Below, one piece after another: positions 2,880 to 24,966 of a stretch of 29,428 nucleotides of DNA (positions within the stretch are counted from its first letter, which is position 1; each line of letters begins with the position of its first letter). Location of the stretch: positions 1 to 29,428 of IMG/VR virus record IMGVR_UViG_3300032214_000073, one strand, 5' to 3'. A program made the position numbers and the translations under genes. A model generated the notes under the pieces. The model saw only the letters and a program-made list of their open reading frames with translations. It had not been told where the DNA came from and did no database searches. This DNA is from a virus (Duplodnaviria > Caudoviricetes).

Positions 2880-3428
2880 ATGATAACTATATTAAACAGG
2901 GAAATTCCCAACCAACTTGAAGAGCTGACCATTGAGCAGTTCGAAGCCATCACTGATATCAATAACAATCAGGAACTTGACCCCATTGATAAGCACCTCC
3001 AAGTGTTTGCATACCTAGGCATTCCTGAAAGTGAGTTTTGGGACTATGATGTGGCTGATTTTGTGGGGATGGTCAAAGAATTTAACTCTGCAGAACGCAA
3101 AGAATATCCAACAGTAGAAGAGCTTGAGATTGATGGATATGTGTACAAAGCACAAATGAAGTTAACTGTAAGAGATACTAAACTGATTGAAAAGATAACA
3201 CTGAAAAAAGAGAAAGGATATATCTCCGAGATGTTAGCGGTCATGTTCAAACGTGAGGACCTTACACCAACTGAACACTACACAGATGCACACATCAAAC
3301 AGAAAGCAAAGCTAATCCGTAAACTGAATGCAGCTATCTCCATTCCATACGTTATGTTTATCGCACAAAAAATAGGACAACAAGCCAATGATCAAGCTAC
3401 CGCAGAATTGGAGCCAAGTAACGCTTGA
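2880..3428 (+). CDS. Conserved phage protein, paralog of 3388..4128 (possible tail assembly chaperone)
   Basis: 182 aa with its own promoter; N-terminal IPNQLEELTIEQF motif matches LPQNWSQVTLEQF of the next gene. Function is inferred only. Confidence 0.6.
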   Translation: MITILNREIPNQLEELTIEQFEAITDINNNQELDPIDKHLQVFAYLGIPESEFWDYDVADFVGMVKEFNSAERKEYPTVEELEIDGYVYKAQMKLTVRDTKLIEKITLKKEKGYISEMLAVMFKREDLTPTEHYTDAHIKQKAKLIRKLNAAISIPYVMFIAQKIGQQANDQATAELEPSNA

Positions 3429-4128
3429 GCAGTTCATTGAATTTAGTGCAATAGATAGAGAACAGGGAGCCTACCACTACAACAGTGAGGCTCTCTCTAT
3501 TTTATCAGATGAGCCTATTGAGGTCATTGAAGATATGGATGTGGATGAGTTGGCAGAACTTGTAGCAGAGGCCAAGTGGTGTACCTCCGAGCCATCCAAA
3601 AGATATAAGCATGAACTGCTTGGCATGAAGTTCAAACCATTCAACAAGCTCACCCTGTATGAGTACATAGACCTGGACTATTTCTTTGGTGATAACTACA
3701 TAACCAATCTTGACAAGGTGTGTGCTATCTGCTACCGGCACAGCAAGTTGAATGAATGGGGGGATGAGGTCCTTGAGCCTTATGAATTTGACTGCAACAT
3801 TAGAGCAGAGAAATTTCATGACCTACCAATCACAGATGTGTATGGAATTGTGCATGAGTTCATGAAGTACAGGGAGGACTTTCTTAAAAAGTATGAGAAC
3901 TTATTTAGTGGTGACCTTGATGAGGATCTAAGTGATGAGGAACGCAGGGAGTTAGATCCCGAAGAGGTTAAGGAAATTGAGAAAGAACAGGCTCAAGCTA
4001 AGTGGTCATGGGAACAAACAATCTACGGGTTGACCAATGGGGATATAACCAAGAGTGATAAGGTTGGTAACCTACCACTCATCTATGTGTTCAATATTCT
4101 TTCAATGAAGAAAGAATTAGACATCTAA
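3388..4128 (+). CDS. Conserved phage protein, paralog of 2880..3428 (possible tail assembly chaperone)
   Basis: 246 aa, acidic and helical; overlaps the previous gene by 41 nt and the convergent gene by 12 nt; C-terminal KWSWEQTIYGLTNGDITK segment. Confidence 0.6.
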   Translation: MIKLPQNWSQVTLEQFIEFSAIDREQGAYHYNSEALSILSDEPIEVIEDMDVDELAELVAEAKWCTSEPSKRYKHELLGMKFKPFNKLTLYEYIDLDYFFGDNYITNLDKVCAICYRHSKLNEWGDEVLEPYEFDCNIRAEKFHDLPITDVYGIVHEFMKYREDFLKKYENLFSGDLDEDLSDEERRELDPEEVKEIEKEQAQAKWSWEQTIYGLTNGDITKSDKVGNLPLIYVFNILSMKKELDI

Positions 4129-6071: not shown

Positions 6072-6101
6072 ACCTATATTATTTTAACCTCCTGAAATGT
6101 T
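6072..6101 (-). promoter_or_regulatory. Candidate phage late promoter (AACA-N16-TAATATAGGT) for the fibre operon
   Basis: Minus strand AAACA-TTTCAGGAGGTTAAAA-TAATATAGGT-ATG(6071); fills the whole intergenic gap. Confidence 0.75.
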
Positions 6102-12908: not shown

Positions 12909-12938
12909 ACCTATATTATTTTATCCTGGTGTTTTGTT
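12909..12938 (-). promoter_or_regulatory. Candidate phage late promoter (AACA-N16-TAATATAGGT) for the tail operon
   Basis: Minus strand AAACA-AAACACCAGGATAAAA-TAATATAGGT-ATG(12908); fills the 31-nt gap after terL. Confidence 0.75.
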
Positions 12939-14841: not shown

Positions 14842-14995
14842 ATTCGTATTGTTCTGTAAATAGCCATGCGTAATAAAGTATGACCCATACCCCAAAGGCC
14901 CTGCATCCATAAAAGTAGTTATCTCTCACTAGAAAGAATGCACCAGTCAAGGCAGTGAATGTTGCCAAGATACTAATTATTTGAGATAGTCTCAT
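14819..14995 (-). CDS. Small two-TM membrane protein (58 aa), first gene of the packaging operon
   Basis: MRLSQIISILATFTALTGAFFLVRDNYFYGCRAFGVWVILYYAWLFTEQYEYDKESKE*; its ATG directly abuts a late-promoter motif. Confidence 0.65.
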   Translation of the reverse strand: MRLSQIISILATFTALTGAFFLVRDNYFYGCRAFGVWVILYYAWLFTEQYEYDKESKE

Positions 14996-15518
14996 ACCTA
15001 TATTGTAATTTGCGTAAATTTTGTTTAATTTCTTTAATCAGATAGTGTGCTGAGGTAACAGGAATATCAAAGTACTTAGCCATTGCTCGAGCTGTGGTAT
15101 ATCCCTTGTCGATGTATGCCTCAAATACTATCCTGTGAACGTGGTCCACTATCTCACTGCGGTATATTTCAATCATCCCCTTGTGAGTGCTGTAGATTTT
15201 ATCTTCCAATATCTTAGCATGTAGATCCTGCTCATCATCCACCTCATCTTTATCCTCATACTCCATGGAGTTCACCCTATCATCCTTGTGGCTCAGTGAC
15301 GTGTTCCATAGAATTTGGTACTTTATGGTGTTGAGTAGATAGCTCTTCACCTGGTCCTCACTCTCAGCATCCTCATTGATGGTCAGTACATGCAGGTAAC
15401 TATTGTTGATAACTGTGTCCGCCTCGATATTGCTCCCCATCTTAGAGAGAAAGTACAGGGTGTAAGCCCTGACCTCATCGTAGTGGTTACTGATGTACCT
15501 GTCTAAGACTTTTTTCAT
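14973..15518 (-). CDS. ECF-like RNA polymerase sigma factor (regions 2 and 4 only), putative late sigma
   Basis: 181 aa; region-2-like HYDEVRAY...EADTVINNSYLHVL...VKSYLLNTIKYQ and region-4-like HRIVFEAYIDKGYTTARAMAKYFDIPVTSAHYLIKEIKQNLRK; located at the early/late boundary. Confidence 0.7.
   Translation of the reverse strand: MKKVLDRYISNHYDEVRAYTLYFLSKMGSNIEADTVINNSYLHVLTINEDAESEDQVKSYLLNTIKYQILWNTSLSHKDDRVNSMEYEDKDEVDDEQDLHAKILEDKIYSTHKGMIEIYRSEIVDHVHRIVFEAYIDKGYTTARAMAKYFDIPVTSAHYLIKEIKQNLRKLQYRYETISNN
14996..15025 (-). promoter_or_regulatory. Candidate phage late promoter (AACA-N16-CAATATAGGT) inside the sigma gene 3' end
   Basis: Minus strand AAACA-AAATTTACGCAAATTA-CAATATAGGT-ATG(14995). 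Confidence 0.7.
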
Positions 15519-17095: not shown

Positions 17096-17332
17096 TCCAG
17101 TTTTTTGTGCAAGAAACTTGACATCTTGCTTCAGCTTCTCTATATAAAGAGTAGCATCCATCAGCTCCTCCTGTAGATGGTTAAGCCATCCATGCAGATC
17201 TACATCCTTCCTATCCAGGTTAGTACCGTACTTAGCCTGCCCCCTCTTACTTCTCTCATAGTACTTAGCCATGACTGCCAATAGGATGCTATCCTTCTGC
17301 TTAATGGGCTCTTGTTCGTGTGTTATGTTCAT
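17090..17332 (-). CDS. Putative all-alpha nucleotide pyrophosphohydrolase-like protein
   Basis: GQAKYG and WLNHLQEELMDATLY (EExxD) motifs resemble MazG-like/dNTP-PPase helical proteins. Confidence 0.5.
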   Translation of the reverse strand: MNITHEQEPIKQKDSILLAVMAKYYERSKRGQAKYGTNLDRKDVDLHGWLNHLQEELMDATLYIEKLKQDVKFLAQKTGK

Positions 17333-17952
17333 TTGTTCTTTAATTGAGTTAATACTTCGTTATAGAATTCAGTAGCTAGGATTAATCTCTCAGCCATTTG
17401 TATCTCTATCTCCTTATCTCTTTCAAAGGTAATGGATGTGATACGCTTCTCAGGTGCAATATGATCCACATAGTGCAGTGCTCCATTCTCATACTCACCC
17501 ATAATCTCAGGAGCAGTAGTTACCATGACATAGCACAGCTCAAAAGATGGCATGTCATATAGCCACATGTAGGCACGTCCTTGCCATTCATAGTCAGATA
17601 GATCCTTTAGCTCATAGCTAGTAGCAGGGAACGTATCTAAGGACCATGAGGTCTTAATATCTATGATGGATGTATCAGTGATAATATCACAGCATCCGGA
17701 TAACCACTCATTCTCTACCCTGTCCTCATTCTTTTTGTAGTCCTCTAGCCTAACCAGGTTAAGTAGGTCAATACTGTCCTGCTCCTGAGCTAATCCCTTA
17801 GTGATGTACTTGCTGTTCACCTCACTCCTGTACTTAAAGAAATCCTCTTTCGCCTTTTGAATGATGTAGCTCTTAGCTGTTTGACTTAATGCCTCCCCCT
17901 TAGTCCTGGAGGAGGTCATTAATTTTCCTAATGATGATGCTCTAAATTTCAT
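17329..17952 (-). CDS. YqaJ/lambda-exonuclease-like PD-(D/E)XK nuclease
   Basis: FRASS, G..QE, SGCCD, IDIK and YEWQGRAYM motifs; coupled to the ERF gene as a two-component recombination module. Confidence 0.85.
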   Translation of the reverse strand: MKFRASSLGKLMTSSRTKGEALSQTAKSYIIQKAKEDFFKYRSEVNSKYITKGLAQEQDSIDLLNLVRLEDYKKNEDRVENEWLSGCCDIITDTSIIDIKTSWSLDTFPATSYELKDLSDYEWQGRAYMWLYDMPSFELCYVMVTTAPEIMGEYENGALHYVDHIAPEKRITSITFERDKEIEIQMAERLILATEFYNEVLTQLKNK

Positions 17953-18482
17953 AGTTGTGCCTCCTGCTCTTTAGTTAGGTTATACATCTCTTTAATCTGC
18001 TCAGGAGTAAACTTACCACTCTTCACTGCATTCAATGCCTTGGTCCATCGGTCACCATCTAGCGTAGGCTTTGCCTTAGGTGCCTTGCTTGCAGTCTCAC
18101 CGTCATCATCTACTGCCTGCAGGGATAGTAAACTAACTAGCGTATATCTGCGGAAGTAAGTAACTGCACTCCCTAGCTTTTGTGCATCCGTAATTGGAGG
18201 CAATGTCATGTATGACTCAAATCTATCCCCATTCTCAATGTCAATGATGATGGTATATACCTTGTCATCCTTAACCGGCTGCATTAAGATTAGGCCGCAG
18301 TCCATTAGGATAGGCTCAACGGTCTCAATGATGCTGTTAATATCAGCGTATGAACGCTTGAAATGTGGGTTAGTGGCATTCTTAATGACCTTACCCATTG
18401 ACTGCTTAGCACAGTGCAATTTTTGAAAGATGTTTAGTGCTGTTTTTGGCTCTTCAGCTTGAGCTGTTTTCCTTGTTGTCAT
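17949..18482 (-). CDS. erf: ERF-family single-strand annealing protein
   Basis: KNATNPHF..YA and the signature GSAVTYFRRYTLVSLLSL...DDDG. Confidence 0.9.
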   Translation of the reverse strand: MTTRKTAQAEEPKTALNIFQKLHCAKQSMGKVIKNATNPHFKRSYADINSIIETVEPILMDCGLILMQPVKDDKVYTIIIDIENGDRFESYMTLPPITDAQKLGSAVTYFRRYTLVSLLSLQAVDDDGETASKAPKAKPTLDGDRWTKALNAVKSGKFTPEQIKEMYNLTKEQEAQL

Positions 18483-18504
18483 AATTTTAAGGTGTTAATT
18501 TCTA

Positions 18505-19615: not shown

Positions 19616-21931
19616 TTAATCTTGTTTAGTGAGTTCAAAGTACCTGCCATGCTGGTCTCTATTTTTGGTGAATTTATAGCCTTTATAGCTTGCATAGGCT
19701 TGCACCCATTTGATGTACTTCCTGCTGTCAAGGTCTTTGAAGCCATTGGTATCTGCTTGAAATGCCTCAAATGATGCTTTGTTGTAGTGTCTAACATCCA
19801 ATGAGATATTCCCATCATGTACAAAGTCATAGAACTCTTTGCAGGTGTTTTGGATGAAACGCTTAGCATCTGCATTGATGGATACACTTCTCACCAATCC
19901 ATTCTGCAGGTACATCTGCAGGTTAGATAGCATGTAGTTATCAAAGTGAGCCCATTCATCTTTATTCCATTCATCAAACAATAGCTTGCCATACTCATCC
20001 TGTGGGTTACGTTGGCTATTAAAGTACTGAAAAAACTCTATCTCATGCCTCCTACGATCATGTGAGGTACCTGCACCACTGATAACATAGTTAGTAGTGA
20101 TAACTATCTTGGGTGAACGTTCAAATGGGATGTATATCTCATCCTTATTCTTTCGGTTTACCGGTATGCCCTCAGTAATCAGGGAGAATAACTGCTCAAA
20201 GTCAAAGTGCTTTTTAACATCATCAAATGCTAGCACCTGAGTATCCATATTAACACGTTGGTACACAAAATCATTCTTTGAGGGGTTGTAAGCCTTACCA
20301 TCTATCTTAATAATCTTGCGGATATTGCCGATGGCTGTCAACATCAAGCTCTTACCACTACCTCCATTAGGGTTATCATCAATCTCTTGGTCATTGAAAA
20401 TGATTGCCTTTTGGTCAGTCTTATCTTTGAACGTGTGGATGAGGTATCCAAGGGTTGACTCCATTGCTTTAATGCGTTGCTCATCCTGGGCTGAAACCTT
20501 ATGTACAAAATCTTGAAAATTATTATCATGAATCGCGATTCGGGTATAATTTCTTTTAATGATTTGCTCCCTCCAAATGTACCCATCTATATCAATGTAG
20601 CTCATTAGCTCCACTTTGTCCTTGGATACCTTGGCCACTCCATTAAGAAATGGGATATAAGATGAGTAGCGATCATCCTGCAGGATACGCATATCAATGG
20701 ACTCTAGCATGTTCAGGTGTGACTCGGTGAACAGCTGAGCACTCTTAGCACAGTGATTGTAGATATCAAGTTCACCCTTAGCTAGGCAGTACTTGAGTAC
20801 AAAGTCCTTGATTAACTCCACTGAGCTCTCACTAACCTTGTTTTCCTCAATGTAAACATAGGTAGGCTTGTTACTCCGTTCCGGATAGTACTTAGCAAAG
20901 CCATGTTTTTGTAGAAATTTAGCATAGTCATGCGGCACGATAGTAATTTTCTTGCCATCTGCCTGCCAAAATACGTCATCTGAGTTCTGCACCTCCTCTT
21001 TTACTGACTCAATGATTGAGCTACTAACACCTAGCTGTTTTTGGATGTCCTCATCCTTGATACCCTCTTTTAATTTTAGCTTTACTTTGTTAACAGTGTT
21101 GGCATCCTCAAAGTACCTGGTATTGAAGTTGCTACTTTTGTATGCATTGGCCACAGTGTTATTGATTTCACTCGCTGTGAAGTCCTCCTGTGCATATTGC
21201 AGGAGGTAATTCTTAGCAGCATACTGATCTACACCATACTCACACATGCAGCAGGCCACCTTAAAGGTCCAATTATTCCTGCCCTGTTCAAATACCCCAT
21301 GATTAAACTTCATGATGAGGTCAATGATACGGTCCTCATTAGCAATGGGTAGCACTGCTATCTTTTCTGCTTTGTGGTATCCCTTATCCTCGGTGATACC
21401 TTGAAACACATCACAGAACTCATTGAGATAGGCATCAGGGTCATAGCTTTCAAAGCATACCCTTGACACGTTGCTATTGGCCACGTCAAAATAATCACTT
21501 TGGATATATTCCTTGTATGCTTCAAACCTCCTCTTGTGTTCAAACTTATTGCTTTCAGGTGTACGGATAACTACCTTGAGTCCATTTCCACTGGGAGATG
21601 TGAACATCATGTAAACGTAGGGACATTCCTTAAGCCTGTTCCGTTCAGCTTTCAAGGTCTTGGCATCCGGATACTTATCAAAGTCCAGCACGCACAATCC
21701 TGAGTGCTGTATCAGGCCATCATCCTTACGCTCACTAAATGTGCCGTTGAACATGATAGCCATTAGCTGCATTTTGCTTTCTGCATCTCCTGCTCTTAGT
21801 TTCTTTATCTTATTAATCAGCTCGGGGTTTCCTTGCTTGATTCTGTTGTACACTTCTATGGCCTCAAGTGTGAAAGGCGTTTCTTTGGAGTTATACAAAC
21901 TCCTGAAAACTGATATTTTTGGGTTAAACAT
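19616..21931 (-). CDS. Primase-helicase (BT4734/VirE N-terminal domain + PriCT-like + SF3 helicase)
   Basis: HSGLCVLDFD and FTSPSGNGLK (VirE_N/BT4734-like), GRNN (PriCT-like), Walker A GGSGKS, Walker B LAFDD, motif C IVITTN. Confidence 0.85.
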   Translation of the reverse strand: MFNPKISVFRSLYNSKETPFTLEAIEVYNRIKQGNPELINKIKKLRAGDAESKMQLMAIMFNGTFSERKDDGLIQHSGLCVLDFDKYPDAKTLKAERNRLKECPYVYMMFTSPSGNGLKVVIRTPESNKFEHKRRFEAYKEYIQSDYFDVANSNVSRVCFESYDPDAYLNEFCDVFQGITEDKGYHKAEKIAVLPIANEDRIIDLIMKFNHGVFEQGRNNWTFKVACCMCEYGVDQYAAKNYLLQYAQEDFTASEINNTVANAYKSSNFNTRYFEDANTVNKVKLKLKEGIKDEDIQKQLGVSSSIIESVKEEVQNSDDVFWQADGKKITIVPHDYAKFLQKHGFAKYYPERSNKPTYVYIEENKVSESSVELIKDFVLKYCLAKGELDIYNHCAKSAQLFTESHLNMLESIDMRILQDDRYSSYIPFLNGVAKVSKDKVELMSYIDIDGYIWREQIIKRNYTRIAIHDNNFQDFVHKVSAQDEQRIKAMESTLGYLIHTFKDKTDQKAIIFNDQEIDDNPNGGSGKSLMLTAIGNIRKIIKIDGKAYNPSKNDFVYQRVNMDTQVLAFDDVKKHFDFEQLFSLITEGIPVNRKNKDEIYIPFERSPKIVITTNYVISGAGTSHDRRRHEIEFFQYFNSQRNPQDEYGKLLFDEWNKDEWAHFDNYMLSNLQMYLQNGLVRSVSINADAKRFIQNTCKEFYDFVHDGNISLDVRHYNKASFEAFQADTNGFKDLDSRKYIKWVQAYASYKGYKFTKNRDQHGRYFELTKQD

Positions 21932-21937
21932 AGGTTA

Positions 21938-21945
21938 CAAATATA
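21938..21945 (-). promoter_or_regulatory. Bacteroidota-type -7 element for the primase operon
   Basis: Minus strand TATATTTG-TAACCT-ATG(21931); TTG 18 nt upstream. Confidence 0.65.
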
Positions 21946-22130
21946 ATAAATGACGATAAATTCCAACTAATGACGATAAAATAAAATCATCGTCCACTCT
22001 ATAAGCTAATGCTGTATTGACTTACAGCTATTTATGGACGATAAGACGATAAATTTTCCAGAACGGAAACTTTTTTAGTGGTCTATATATTAAGTACCCC
22101 CCATAAGAGAACCGTCACATCGTCATACGG
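21946..22130. repeat. Iteron array, putative replication origin
   Basis: GACGATAA at 21952, 21972, 22037 and 22045; inverted ATCGTC at 21989 and 22119; AT-rich non-coding region directly upstream of the primase-helicase gene. Confidence 0.75.
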
Positions 22131-22134
22131 TCAT

Positions 22135-22160
22135 AAAAAAGAGGGAGCCTAAACCCCCTC
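22135..22160 (-). terminator. Rho-independent terminator ending the first early operon and the candidate sRNA
   Basis: Minus strand GAGGGGGT-TTAG-GCTCCCTC-TTTTTT. Confidence 0.85.
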
Positions 22161-22189
22161 CCCCATATTAACCCTTAAAAAATTATGGT
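22135..22189 (-). ncRNA. Candidate ~55-nt trans-acting antisense small RNA
   Basis: TATCTTTG at 22200..22193, then ACCATAATTTTTTAAGGGTTAATATGGGG plus terminator; the 5' part is complementary to the leaders at 18480..18499 and 24942..24961. Confidence 0.5.
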
Positions 22190-22646
22190 CCTCAAAGATA
22201 GATAGAATCTCGCTTACAGTCATCTTGTCTTGGAATTTTGTTAATAACTTTGGAGGCATATTCCCTGTGATTGTTACCCTTGCTTCCTCGTCACACATCG
22301 GCATAACACTGACATCAAAGATATTAATATCGTCTCTTTTCTGCTTAATTAGGTCAGGTAATGGGTGAATGTACTTGAGGTATCTCTCATCTTTTCTACC
22401 ATACCAATAGCTATGCTCTTTCATGCCATGAATTACGGAGCTATGATCTCGGTTAAAGAATTTACCAATCATGCTCAAGGTCATGTGCCGGTAGTTGTAC
22501 ATATAGTTGTACAGGTAGTACCTCTTGTATGCTGATATTTCTACCCTACTAGGTGTGTTTAGTTGGTATTCCAGGATAAGCTTCATTAGGTCCTCATTTT
22601 GTAGTTTTGTGAGCTCGAATACTGTCTCATCTATTTGTCCTCTCAT
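22149..22646 (-). CDS. DNA-binding protein with DnaA C-terminal-like HTH
   Basis: MTLSMIGKFFNRDHSSVIHG matches the DnaA domain IV signature (SLxxIGxxFxxRDHxTVxH); no AAA+ domain. Confidence 0.75.
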   Translation of the reverse strand: MRGQIDETVFELTKLQNEDLMKLILEYQLNTPSRVEISAYKRYYLYNYMYNYRHMTLSMIGKFFNRDHSSVIHGMKEHSYWYGRKDERYLKYIHPLPDLIKQKRDDINIFDVSVMPMCDEEARVTITGNMPPKLLTKFQDKMTVSEILSIFEDHNFLRVNMGEGV

Positions 22647-22837
22647 TTTTTCTCTATGTAATATTTGTAGTAATTATCTCGTTTTACGTTATACTCTAGC
22701 TTTTCAAATAGCTTAAGGTACCTGTATGCTGTCCTTTCACTTGTGCCTAAGTACCTAGCCATCCCCATTACGGTCCTGGGCTTTTCCTGTAGCATCTGCA
22801 GGAGTCTGAGCACCCTGTATATTTTGTGCTGGTTCAT
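22643..22837 (-). CDS. Small winged-HTH protein
   Basis: RVLRLLQML...TVMGMARYLGTSERTAYRYL is an HTH_11/DeoR-like pattern. Confidence 0.8.
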   Translation of the reverse strand: MNQHKIYRVLRLLQMLQEKPRTVMGMARYLGTSERTAYRYLKLFEKLEYNVKRDNYYKYYIEKK

Positions 22838-24147
22838 AATGGTAGATTATTAATAATTTTCTCTAATACTCTTACTACTATACTATTGCCTGCTTGCTTG
22901 TAGGCTTGACTATCTGATACAGGCCATGTAAATGTATCAGGGAAGTCCATTAATCGGAAGCATTCACGAGGAGTTAGTCTACGGATTTTGTAGTCATTGA
23001 TATAGCCTTGTGCATATCCATGTGTGCCAGCTGATAATGTAGGAGATATTCCATTTGTACTATAAACTTGAGATGCTTGTGTATCTTGATTTATATAACC
23101 AATGTTTTGAATTACCGCCTGATTGCATTGAGTATCCAAAGTCTGAGCTACTTGTTTACCTACTCTACCTCTTCTAGTTTCAGATCCTGGGAATGAAAAA
23201 TTAATACTATCTTCCTCAGTAGCTTCCTCATATCCTTTAAATGTGCCTGATTTGATTTTTATGGTATCCCAATTATGTTTATTAGACATGGTACCCTTTC
23301 CTCCTGTTCTAATTGTATTACATATTTCACTTCCTTGAAAATTGGTTACCTTAAGATATTGTTGATCACGTCCACCCATCTTAAAATATCCGGCGTGAAT
23401 ACATGCACTATTGTTAGGATTTTCATTTTCAATAATTGGATTTTTGTGATGGGCTAAAACATTAATCATTTTTTCACTCAAAAAATACTTATCATCTACA
23501 CTATCCTCTAGTACATCCTTTAATCTTTTAGTTAACTCCTCCTCATCTGGCCATGAGAATGTATTATCCTGATCATCTCTAATGCCTATTAAAAATACCC
23601 TTTCTCTATTTTGTGGAATTCCATGTTTTTTAGCATTCAATACTTTGTAATGAAGATGATAAGGTACAGCCCCATCTATTGGCATCATAGTAGTTATTCC
23701 ATTAACTGATTTACCTCCTAGGTAATCTATCCATTCCTTAAAAGTTCTGCCAATCTTATCCTTTTTATTATCCTTATCATGAGATAGTAACCCTCTTACA
23801 TTCTCAAAAATAAAGAAACGTGGATTATTAACCTGGATAAATTCTAAACTGTTAAAGAATAAAATACCTCTTGCATCCTCTTTACCTAATCTCTTACCTG
23901 CCATACTAAATGCTTGACATGGAGGTGATGTCATATAGATATCTAAACTCTCCTTTGGTATCTCTCTATCATATACATTCATAGGATAGTACTCCGGCTC
24001 TCCATAGTTATGGATGAATGTTTGCCTCGCATATTTATCCATATCACAGGAAAATACTTCCTGATAGTCTATCCCTAATCTCATTAGGGCTTGATTAAAC
24101 GCTCCTACTCCTGAGAAGTCGCTACCTATTTTAATTGTTGTTTTCAT
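22834..24147 (-). CDS. DNA (cytosine-5) methyltransferase with long variable region
   Basis: Motifs I FSGVG, IV PPCQAFS, VI ENV, VIII QNRER, IX RRLTPRECFRLM and X QAGNS. Confidence 0.95.
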   Translation of the reverse strand: MKTTIKIGSDFSGVGAFNQALMRLGIDYQEVFSCDMDKYARQTFIHNYGEPEYYPMNVYDREIPKESLDIYMTSPPCQAFSMAGKRLGKEDARGILFFNSLEFIQVNNPRFFIFENVRGLLSHDKDNKKDKIGRTFKEWIDYLGGKSVNGITTMMPIDGAVPYHLHYKVLNAKKHGIPQNRERVFLIGIRDDQDNTFSWPDEEELTKRLKDVLEDSVDDKYFLSEKMINVLAHHKNPIIENENPNNSACIHAGYFKMGGRDQQYLKVTNFQGSEICNTIRTGGKGTMSNKHNWDTIKIKSGTFKGYEEATEEDSINFSFPGSETRRGRVGKQVAQTLDTQCNQAVIQNIGYINQDTQASQVYSTNGISPTLSAGTHGYAQGYINDYKIRRLTPRECFRLMDFPDTFTWPVSDSQAYKQAGNSIVVRVLEKIINNLPL

Positions 24148-24287
24148 ATTTTTTCAATTACAAAGTGTCCGTAAACGTGAGTACCTGCTGCCCTGAATTG
24201 GTTAAGTTTCCAATGGCAGAGTGCTTTGGTAGGGAATTCATAGCTCTCTGCGAGCCTTGAGTCATAATAGTAGAGTAATCTGTACAT
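24144..24287 (-). CDS. Small hypothetical protein (47 aa)
   Basis: MYRLLYYYDSRLAESYEFPTKALCHWKLNQFRAAGTHVYGHFVIEKI*; ATGA overlap with the MTase start. Confidence 0.55.
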   Translation of the reverse strand: MYRLLYYYDSRLAESYEFPTKALCHWKLNQFRAAGTHVYGHFVIEKI

Positions 24288-24686: not shown

Positions 24687-24775
24687 ATCATAAAGATTAA
24701 AGTGTGATACATTAATACCATGGTACCCACGACCACAGCAAAACTTGCTACTACATCAAATAGTTCTTTTTTCAT
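24677..24775 (-). CDS. Small single-TM protein (32 aa)
   Basis: MKKELFDVVASFAVVVGTMVLMYHTLIFMICK*; ATGA overlap with the upstream gene. Confidence 0.55.
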   Translation of the reverse strand: MKKELFDVVASFAVVVGTMVLMYHTLIFMICK

Positions 24776-24939
24776 TTGTTTGCGTTTAGGATGGTTAAAA
24801 AATCTTCTGTGTTATCCAGTGCTGTCTGAGTCATTTCCTCAGTAGCTTCTACAAGCAGTTGCTCTAAGAATAAAGCAAGTGTTTCTGCGTTGTTTTGGTT
24901 GGTCTTGATAAAGTCAAGGGCTCTTTCAAACTGTTTCAT
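24772..24939 (-). CDS. First early gene, small acidic helical protein (55 aa)
   Basis: MKQFERALDFIKTNQNNAETLALFLEQLLVEATEEMTQTALDNTEDFLTILNANK*; follows a full Bacteroidota-type promoter and A/T-rich leader. Confidence 0.7.
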   Translation of the reverse strand: MKQFERALDFIKTNQNNAETLALFLEQLLVEATEEMTQTALDNTEDFLTILNANK

Positions 24940-24966
24940 AAATAATTTTTAAGTGTTAATACCTGA

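Follow-up and report, generated by a model that had tools for sequence, protein, structure and literature searches.

A conserved promoter, anti-start-codon stretch and terminator predict a FopS-like small RNA in a phage genome

Introduction

The c4 antisense RNAs of phages P1 and P7 are processed, multi-stem molecules of temperate enterobacterial phages and act on dedicated target boxes. Ribosomes of the Bacteroidota ignore Shine-Dalgarno sequences and read A-rich leaders. In Bacteroides thetaiotaomicron, the small RNA FopS, present in 14 copies, combines a canonical promoter with a single-stranded 5' seed and a terminator, represses its targets at their start codons, binds RbpB and acts on host transporters (PMC11697453). 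That paper mentions one copy of FopS in Caudovirales and leaves the spread of FopS by phages open. GibS represses by pairing over start codons (PMC7366714), and VpdS of phage VP882 and PreS of phage lambda are short trans-acting phage RNAs that influence phage replication (PMC12197685). In the literature on phages of Bacteroidota, with subscription journals thinly covered, we found no such RNA beyond the phage copy in the FopS paper, and the available part of a phage sRNA review contains no occurrence of "Bacteroid".

Here, we describe a short unit that joins a host-type promoter box, a stretch complementary to phage start codons and an intrinsic-terminator-like hairpin, which is conserved among related phages and is predicted to give rise to a small RNA resembling FopS in design. 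The unit was first proposed in a preliminary description of this DNA.

The phage genome and its early region

The window, that is, the whole stretch of DNA analysed, is the 29,428-nt (29.4-kb) virus record IMGVR_UViG_3300032214_000073, which is rated 100% complete. Nearly all of its long ORFs are carried by the minus strand, and these include structural and lysis genes (portal, terminase, protease, tape-measure, holin and endolysin) and an early region that encodes Erf (called with both PHROGs and Pfam), an exonuclease, SSB, a primase-like protein and methyltransferases. Two plus-strand ORFs at 2880-4128, with a host-type box at 2857, lie amid a late region that is otherwise on the minus strand. 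A scan of 27 phage proteins recognised no integrase or immunity region, and BLAST against annotated phages found nothing. The first early gene, the primase-like gene and erf each have a TAnnTTTG box in an AT-rich context ahead of them (24974, 21945 and 18512, respectively), and on these grounds a Bacteroidota host is predicted for the phage. Direct and inverted repeats of GACGAT(AA) cluster at 21949-22128, between the terminator of the unit described below and the primase-like gene, which is near-leaderless; they can also be seen in relatives and are likely the iterons of a replication origin.

On the late side, AATATAGGT occurs in five exact copies on the minus strand (275-283, 2838-2846, 6072-6080, 12909-12917 and 14996-15004), four of which stand 0-2 nt before an ATG; the count of one-mismatch copies is not above chance. 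This motif is likely a phage late promoter that would give leaderless mRNAs. A lead for a cognate factor is the 181-aa protein encoded at 14973-15518 (minus strand), a candidate late sigma factor: it has no Pfam sigma match and no PHROGs match, and in the Atlas a cluster with the name sigma-70 family ranks 17th, with a score of 0.97.

Anatomy of the unit

The unit lies at the 3' end of an ORF (22646-22149) that matches Bac_DnaA_C with an E-value of 3.8e-6, under the Pfam cut-off. Here the box TATCTTTG is followed by AGG, then by ACCATAATTTTTTAAGGGTTAATAT and then by a hairpin and a U-run ending at 22135 (Table 1), which confirms the order of box, anti-leader and terminator given in the preliminary description; as was also stated there, no -33 TTTG is evident. 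The promoter consensus TAHHTTTG, with transcription starting 4-5 nt 3' of the box, has been described together with the weakness of the -33 element in Flavobacterium promoters and the role of leader adenines in determining initiation (PMC6847099). With this spacing, the 5' end of the RNA would be 22188 or 22187.

Table 1. Coordinates of the unit, of its parts and of its predicted targets in the window
Feature	Position	Strand	Remarks
Unit from the TAHHTTTG box through the 22-nt anti-start-codon stretch to the hairpin and U-run	22200-22135	-	
Host-type -7 promoter box TATCTTTG (TAHHTTTG)	22193..22200	-	sequence
Predicted small RNA, 53-54 nt	22135..22188	-	5' end inferred from box spacing, 3' end from terminator
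Seed CATAATTTTTTAAGGGTTAATA, single-stranded, anti-AUG first	22166..22187	-	unpaired in predicted fold
Intrinsic-terminator-like hairpin and U-run	22135..22164	-	-15.4 kcal/mol, z -2.0
ORF with weak DnaA C-terminal HTH match, 3' end overlapping the unit	22149..22646	-	
Predicted target 1: leader and AUG of the erf operon	18480..18499	-	box 18512-18505; rank 1/38, -15.5 kcal/mol
Predicted target 2: leader of the first early gene	24937..24961	-	box 24974-24967, ATG 24939; rank 2/38, -12.0
Possible minor target: start of the near-leaderless primase-like gene	21916..21937	-	box 21945-21938; 12-nt inverted repeat with the seed
Possible occasional target: start of the 80-aa gene after the exonuclease	17330..17355	-	-10.7, rank 3/38

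The predicted fold of the RNA is one hairpin; in two clades, the folds show weak self-pairing of the seed. The U-run is confined to the minus strand. Since the unit sequence doubles as the predicted 3' end of the mRNA of the first early operon, the RNA could accumulate both from its own promoter and from that mRNA. An all-family Rfam scan of 21800-22700 at E-values up to 10 returned only a weak match to L20_leader, an identity that we rejected because the terminator accounts for the match. Two sequencing runs contained contigs of related phages, 85-99% alike, and are uninformative on expression.

Conservation among related phages

Relatives were picked by protein search, which gave 64 loci. 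The box, the seed and the start of the terminator are present in 58 of these and thus in all 58 intact loci; five of the other six end before the site and one (L033) has a deletion. The box and the seed also occur in each of 20 further protein-selected loci. The unit is kept in relatives down to 59% protein identity. Read at the level of sequence, TAHHTTTG sits 5-6 nt before CAT in 58/58 and 20/20 loci, and the box variants (TATC, TATA and TACA) all fit this consensus. Every complete relative has a terminator after the seed. In L033 (4300-4330), about 110 nt are missing between two similar Ile-Phe-Asp/Glu codon sites, with the seed and the terminator kept and the first letters of the box gone; the gap arose either naturally or in the assembly. 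The phage's own gene end, together with the unit, also occurs on a 2.6-kb contig assigned to a bacterial MAG (L333 in genome_contigs); the contig is probably mis-binned phage DNA and hence not evidence of the host.

Conservation was quantified over 440 nt in 63 distinct haplotypes, which were chosen by motif; counting the box among them would be circular. No 19-mer is more conserved than the seed (mean conservation 0.996), compared with means of 0.74 for the hairpin and 0.66 for the third codon positions of the gene, 3/105 of which are invariant. Just 47/63 haplotypes retain a sister copy of TATCTTTG at 22323, where the gene has similar codons. Despite sequence change, the hairpin is retained in all 16 full-length variants that were folded, with whole-RNA energies from -14 to -19, and an alignment of 14 ranges, of which two were mis-set, shows double changes at one of its base pairs.

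The reading frame offers a separate view of this constraint. The gene stops at the TAA within CATAA in 26 of the 58 relatives, so that the remainder of the seed is non-coding there, and the seed is read as codons in the other 32. Being kept both in frame and past an earlier stop, the unit owes its conservation to something other than the protein. These observations support a strong constraint on the promoter-seed-terminator unit at the nucleotide level, independent of the reading frame.

Predicted pairing with phage gene starts

The 22-nt seed was scored against 38 hand-picked starts and against 40-nt windows of the sense strand at a step of 4, along with 1000 dinucleotide-shuffled seeds. The matches at 18480-18499 and 24942-24961 stand as they were first written, and both follow host-type boxes (18512 and 24974). 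With these leaders first and second of the 38, the ranking against shuffled controls places both above chance: 4/1000 shuffled seeds pair as well with the erf leader and 16/1000 with that of the first early gene, and 29/1000 reach -15.5 at any of the 38 starts. Over all sense-strand windows tested, the erf leader is the best site (-15.5 kcal/mol). With self-structure counted, binding amounts to -12.8 at erf and -10.4 at the first early gene, compared with -1 to -4.4 at five other starts. The caveat that the pairing is AU-rich is upheld. These results support the erf and first early leaders as the best predicted partners of the unit.

Pairing at the starts of structural and lysis genes named by PHROGs is at background (-3 to -6). 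An ordinary leader precedes the probable capsid gene, which by its sequence would escape through poor pairing rather than through leaderlessness. For the start of the C5-methyltransferase gene, the match proposed at 24145-24157 exists; its pairing (-6.7, rank 13/38) is background and the leader differs in the six relative variants shown, and we dropped it as a target. Binding at the primase-like start is -7.8 to -11.3. The pairing at 17330..17355 spans -5 to -19 in 33 relative variants, and this target is thus not conserved.

Among relatives, 29/33 distinct variants of the first early leader and 24/31 of the erf leader beat 95% of shuffled seeds, as do 2/12 primase starts and 0/7 other box-led starts. 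The seed is constant where the leaders differ between relatives, and pairing in some of these falls to -7 to -10; compensatory changes between seed and leaders, which had been expected to turn up in relatives, were looked for there and none was seen. With 2/12 variants and no covariation, the primase start finds no support as a conserved target, and an apparent match of the seed tail to it failed a permutation test (p 0.21-0.25). The tag in the first early leader is kept in several relatives in which the downstream protein begins differently. Indeed, the first early ORF (24775-24939 and its equivalents in L205, L207, L209, L072 and L184) starts very differently among relatives; the promoter is kept in these and a GTATTAAC..TTAAAAA leader in most. 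L209 has an extra box-led leader of the same style about 3.1 kb downstream of the unit.

Proposed mode of action

The anatomy, the complementarity and its rank are the observations from which we infer transcription, pairing in the cell, repression and their timing. On balance, we favour a trans-acting RNA, made from its own promoter, as the 3' end of the early mRNA, or both, that would pair with both early leaders and lower their translation. Transcription by the RNA polymerase of the host would begin at the TAHHTTTG box and end at the hairpin, yielding an RNA of about 54 nt that would pair with the leader and start codon of two early operons and likely block the loading of ribosomes. A stable RNA would build up with transcription and with genome copy number and would thereby feed back negatively, with a delay, on the recombination/SSB operon and on the first early operon, sparing the structural genes, whose starts pair poorly. 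A promoter of the host type would itself fire early, so the timing in this scheme is an assumption.

Host gene starts

The preliminary description had also envisaged a broader effect on host mRNAs with similar A-rich leaders. Stand-in hosts were used, namely 400 kb from five genomes with 269 starts. Of these, 7 reach -12 and 1 reaches -15.5, and shuffled seeds did as well, so that a broad shut-off of host mRNAs finds no support at the stand-in starts. Near-exact complements of the seed gave 10 matches in 9/301 host genomes against 9 control matches and, in 68 genomes of one family, 8 against 7. The host genes behind these complements are unrelated to each other, and no single conserved host target was found among near-exact complements in either set. 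A further host search yielded four matches, one a copy of the phage region and three in reverse gene-start or non-terminator contexts. The pattern of promoter, anti-AUG and terminator occurs near control level in 151 genomes from the order of a Flavobacteriaceae genome and is absent from three genomes. Because the seed mirrors a leader style common in Bacteroidota, some host mRNAs would probably be hit too.

These searches bear on a reading in which the RNA is made and is mainly directed at the host, acting on a subset of mRNAs with A-rich leaders or occupying an RbpB-type protein, with the match to phage leaders as a by-product of shared leader style. The seed is more invariant than its phage targets; a near-identical seed occurs in an apparently unrelated phage (L075), in which pairing with the phage's own starts is modest; some host genes, such as an HU-family gene and that of glutamate dehydrogenase, have a near-perfect complement ahead of them; and host FopS acts on host transporters and binds RbpB (PMC11697453). 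All the same, near-exact host complements stay at control level in the 301 and the 68 genomes, the 269 stand-in starts do no better with the seed than with its shuffles, and the U-run that FopS has before CAU is absent from the phage unit. We regard a mainly host-directed role as rather unlikely.

Alternatives at the DNA level

The seed and both leaders contain TTAA-N3/4-TTAA, which is its own reverse complement, and the three sites, each just 3' of a host-type promoter, could be operators for a phage HTH protein. TTAA-N3-TTAA occurs three times in the window where about one is expected, a count reached by 8/100 shuffles; the N3 form is found at the seed and the first early leader and the N4 form at the erf leader; and the same operon holds two HTH-type genes. 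Yet several leaders and 23/183 fetched loci, a set that includes duplicates, have a broken palindrome, its spacing is either 3 or 4 instead of being fixed, the non-palindromic CATAATTTTT is invariant, and units in other phages keep the anti-AUG and the terminator with no such palindrome. The operator reading is in our judgement improbable, and as the terminator is present in every complete relative, the promoter would make a short RNA even then.

We give similarly little credence to a role at the replication origin or as part of an early terminator, with the unit as an AT-rich unwinding element or as the source of an RNA primer by the GACGAT repeats, or to a copy-number RNA for the primase. 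The unit does adjoin the repeat cluster ahead of the primase-like gene, and the 3' part of the seed can pair with the start of that gene, at energies that reach -15 in some clades. Against this, only 2/12 variants beat shuffles, covariation is absent, the pairing is lost in L205, L075 and most of the other-phage units examined lie by other kinds of gene, and the anti-AUG is left unexplained.

It is highly improbable that the unit reflects chance similarity of AT-rich sequence, a constraint on coding, or a mini-ORF or relic gene start on the plus strand: the pairing is AT-rich, 29/1000 shuffled seeds reach the best energy at some start and TATCTTTG can arise from Ile-Phe-Asp/Glu codons, but the unit is invariant in two reading contexts and at synonymous sites, the plus-strand peptide is just 5-7 codons long and differs between clades, and the U-run is on the minus strand only.

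Similar units in other phage contigs

A motif scan returned 104 loci. Among them, L075 (3833-3905) is a stand-alone copy between divergent genes, on a phage contig of 8.5 kb that is apparently unrelated to the window; its seed is near-identical and its hairpin differs. The gene set of that contig is different and the promoter ahead of the seed has a -33-like TTTG; the predicted 5' end would fall within the anti-AUG. For the L075 seed, the erf leader of our window is a better partner than the starts in the L075 contig, and a search for a close relative of L075 turned up none.

A first, loose viral pattern gave mostly noise and was discarded. The scan then relied on consists of the box, CATAATTT and a terminator-like end, looser than the motif scan, and gave at least 120 loci in 40 of the 64 parts of the collection. 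With the real box, 66/120 loci (39/78 distinct) have a hairpin of -8 or lower and no long opposite-strand ORF, compared with 16/71 loci (7/45 distinct) for a scrambled-box control run to the end of the collection; the promoter-seed-terminator design is enriched with the real box. Dozens of distinct units of promoter, CATAATTT, U/G-rich stretch and hairpin are thus seen in other phage contigs (for example L426, L435, L412, L379, L369, L360, L339, L346 and L350). Many directly follow a stop codon, L075 and most of those examined adjoin genes other than primase genes, and they keep the anti-AUG and the terminator in the absence of the TTAA palindrome.

Preference of the seeds for their own loci was tested in 17 phage groups with 33 loci, made up of this window, L075 and 31 loci from the scan, each 6 kb or longer. 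It is weak (permutation p 0.024), so that for the most part the seeds mirror a leader style that the groups share. A model derived from the sequences alone of 23 other-phage units, with no base pairs, found neither the unit described here nor host FopS. By their sequence, the look-alike units in other phage contigs constitute a predicted, uncatalogued class of RNA, in which some groups with short seeds may be plain terminators.

Significance

A FopS-like unit is thus fixed in one group of phages, and dozens of distinct look-alikes occur in others. For a phage in a host whose ribosomes read A-rich leaders, an RNA that mirrors the leader would be a compact means of controlling whole operons with no repressor protein. 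Tentatively, and on more doubtful ground, we suggest that Bacteroidota phages widely carry an uncatalogued family of FopS-like RNAs that start with an anti-start codon; that the RNA described here might serve as an autoregulatory timer which, from the 3' end of one early operon, silences this operon and the other one and acts with a phage late promoter in the switch from early to late expression; and that such RNAs could be a pool for the origin or spread of host FopS. The analysis provides a named set of targets for RNA control of phage development in Bacteroidota, and the unit may possibly find use as a small portable repressor in Flavobacterium genetics.

Comparison with known RNAs

The preliminary description recognised no described counterpart of this arrangement; FopS and GibS of Bacteroides do share its design and proposed mechanism. 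VpdS and PreS are Hfq-dependent and belong to Proteobacteria; the comparison with these was made by the Rfam scan, which gave no match. The unit would share with c4 the repression, in trans and by partial complementarity, of the phage's own genes, a role that is predicted here. Its fold is a single hairpin and not multi-stem, and Rfam C4 has no match at the locus at E-values up to 10.

GibS (RF04182) likewise has a long AU-rich unstructured 5' seed in a phylum that does without Shine-Dalgarno sequences. It differs in length (about 145 nt, with a model of 142 positions, against a predicted 54 nt or so), in having two seeds, in its promoter class and in its metabolic targets, and it gave no Rfam match at the locus at E-values up to 10 (its cut-off is 115 bits).

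The unit resembles FopS (RF04319), which also has a host promoter, a single-stranded 5' stretch with CAU and a terminator hairpin, and which pairs near the start codons of the first genes of operons, as is predicted for the phage unit. Host FopS copies and the phage unit share CATA..TTTAAGG(G)TTAA, where the host copies read CATAGTATTAGATTTAAGGTTAA and the phage unit reads CATAATTTTTTAAGGGTTAA. The predicted phage RNA is shorter (about 54 nt versus about 70 nt) and is without GUGUUUUU, the 5' U-run that FopS has before CAU, so its predicted pairing extends only from the AUG upstream. Moreover, it is a single copy that overlaps a coding 3' end and has early phage operons as predicted targets, whereas FopS has many paralogues per host genome.

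Covariance scores agree with this picture of likeness short of identity. In the whole phage genome, RF04319 has one match (22131-22179, E 0.16, model positions 21-71), and its 15 bits compare with a cut-off of 56 bits; FopS is absent from the all-family Rfam scan at E-values up to 10. Host FopS copies that we fetched score 59-81 bits, with 6/10 loci over the cut-off, and 20 short loci from other phages are all below it, with L426 at 31 bits. As the same search is weakly positive in 8/14 control genomes, the score of 15 bits is in itself slight. The phage unit thus resembles FopS and falls outside the family as modelled; from its sequence, it would work like FopS by design.
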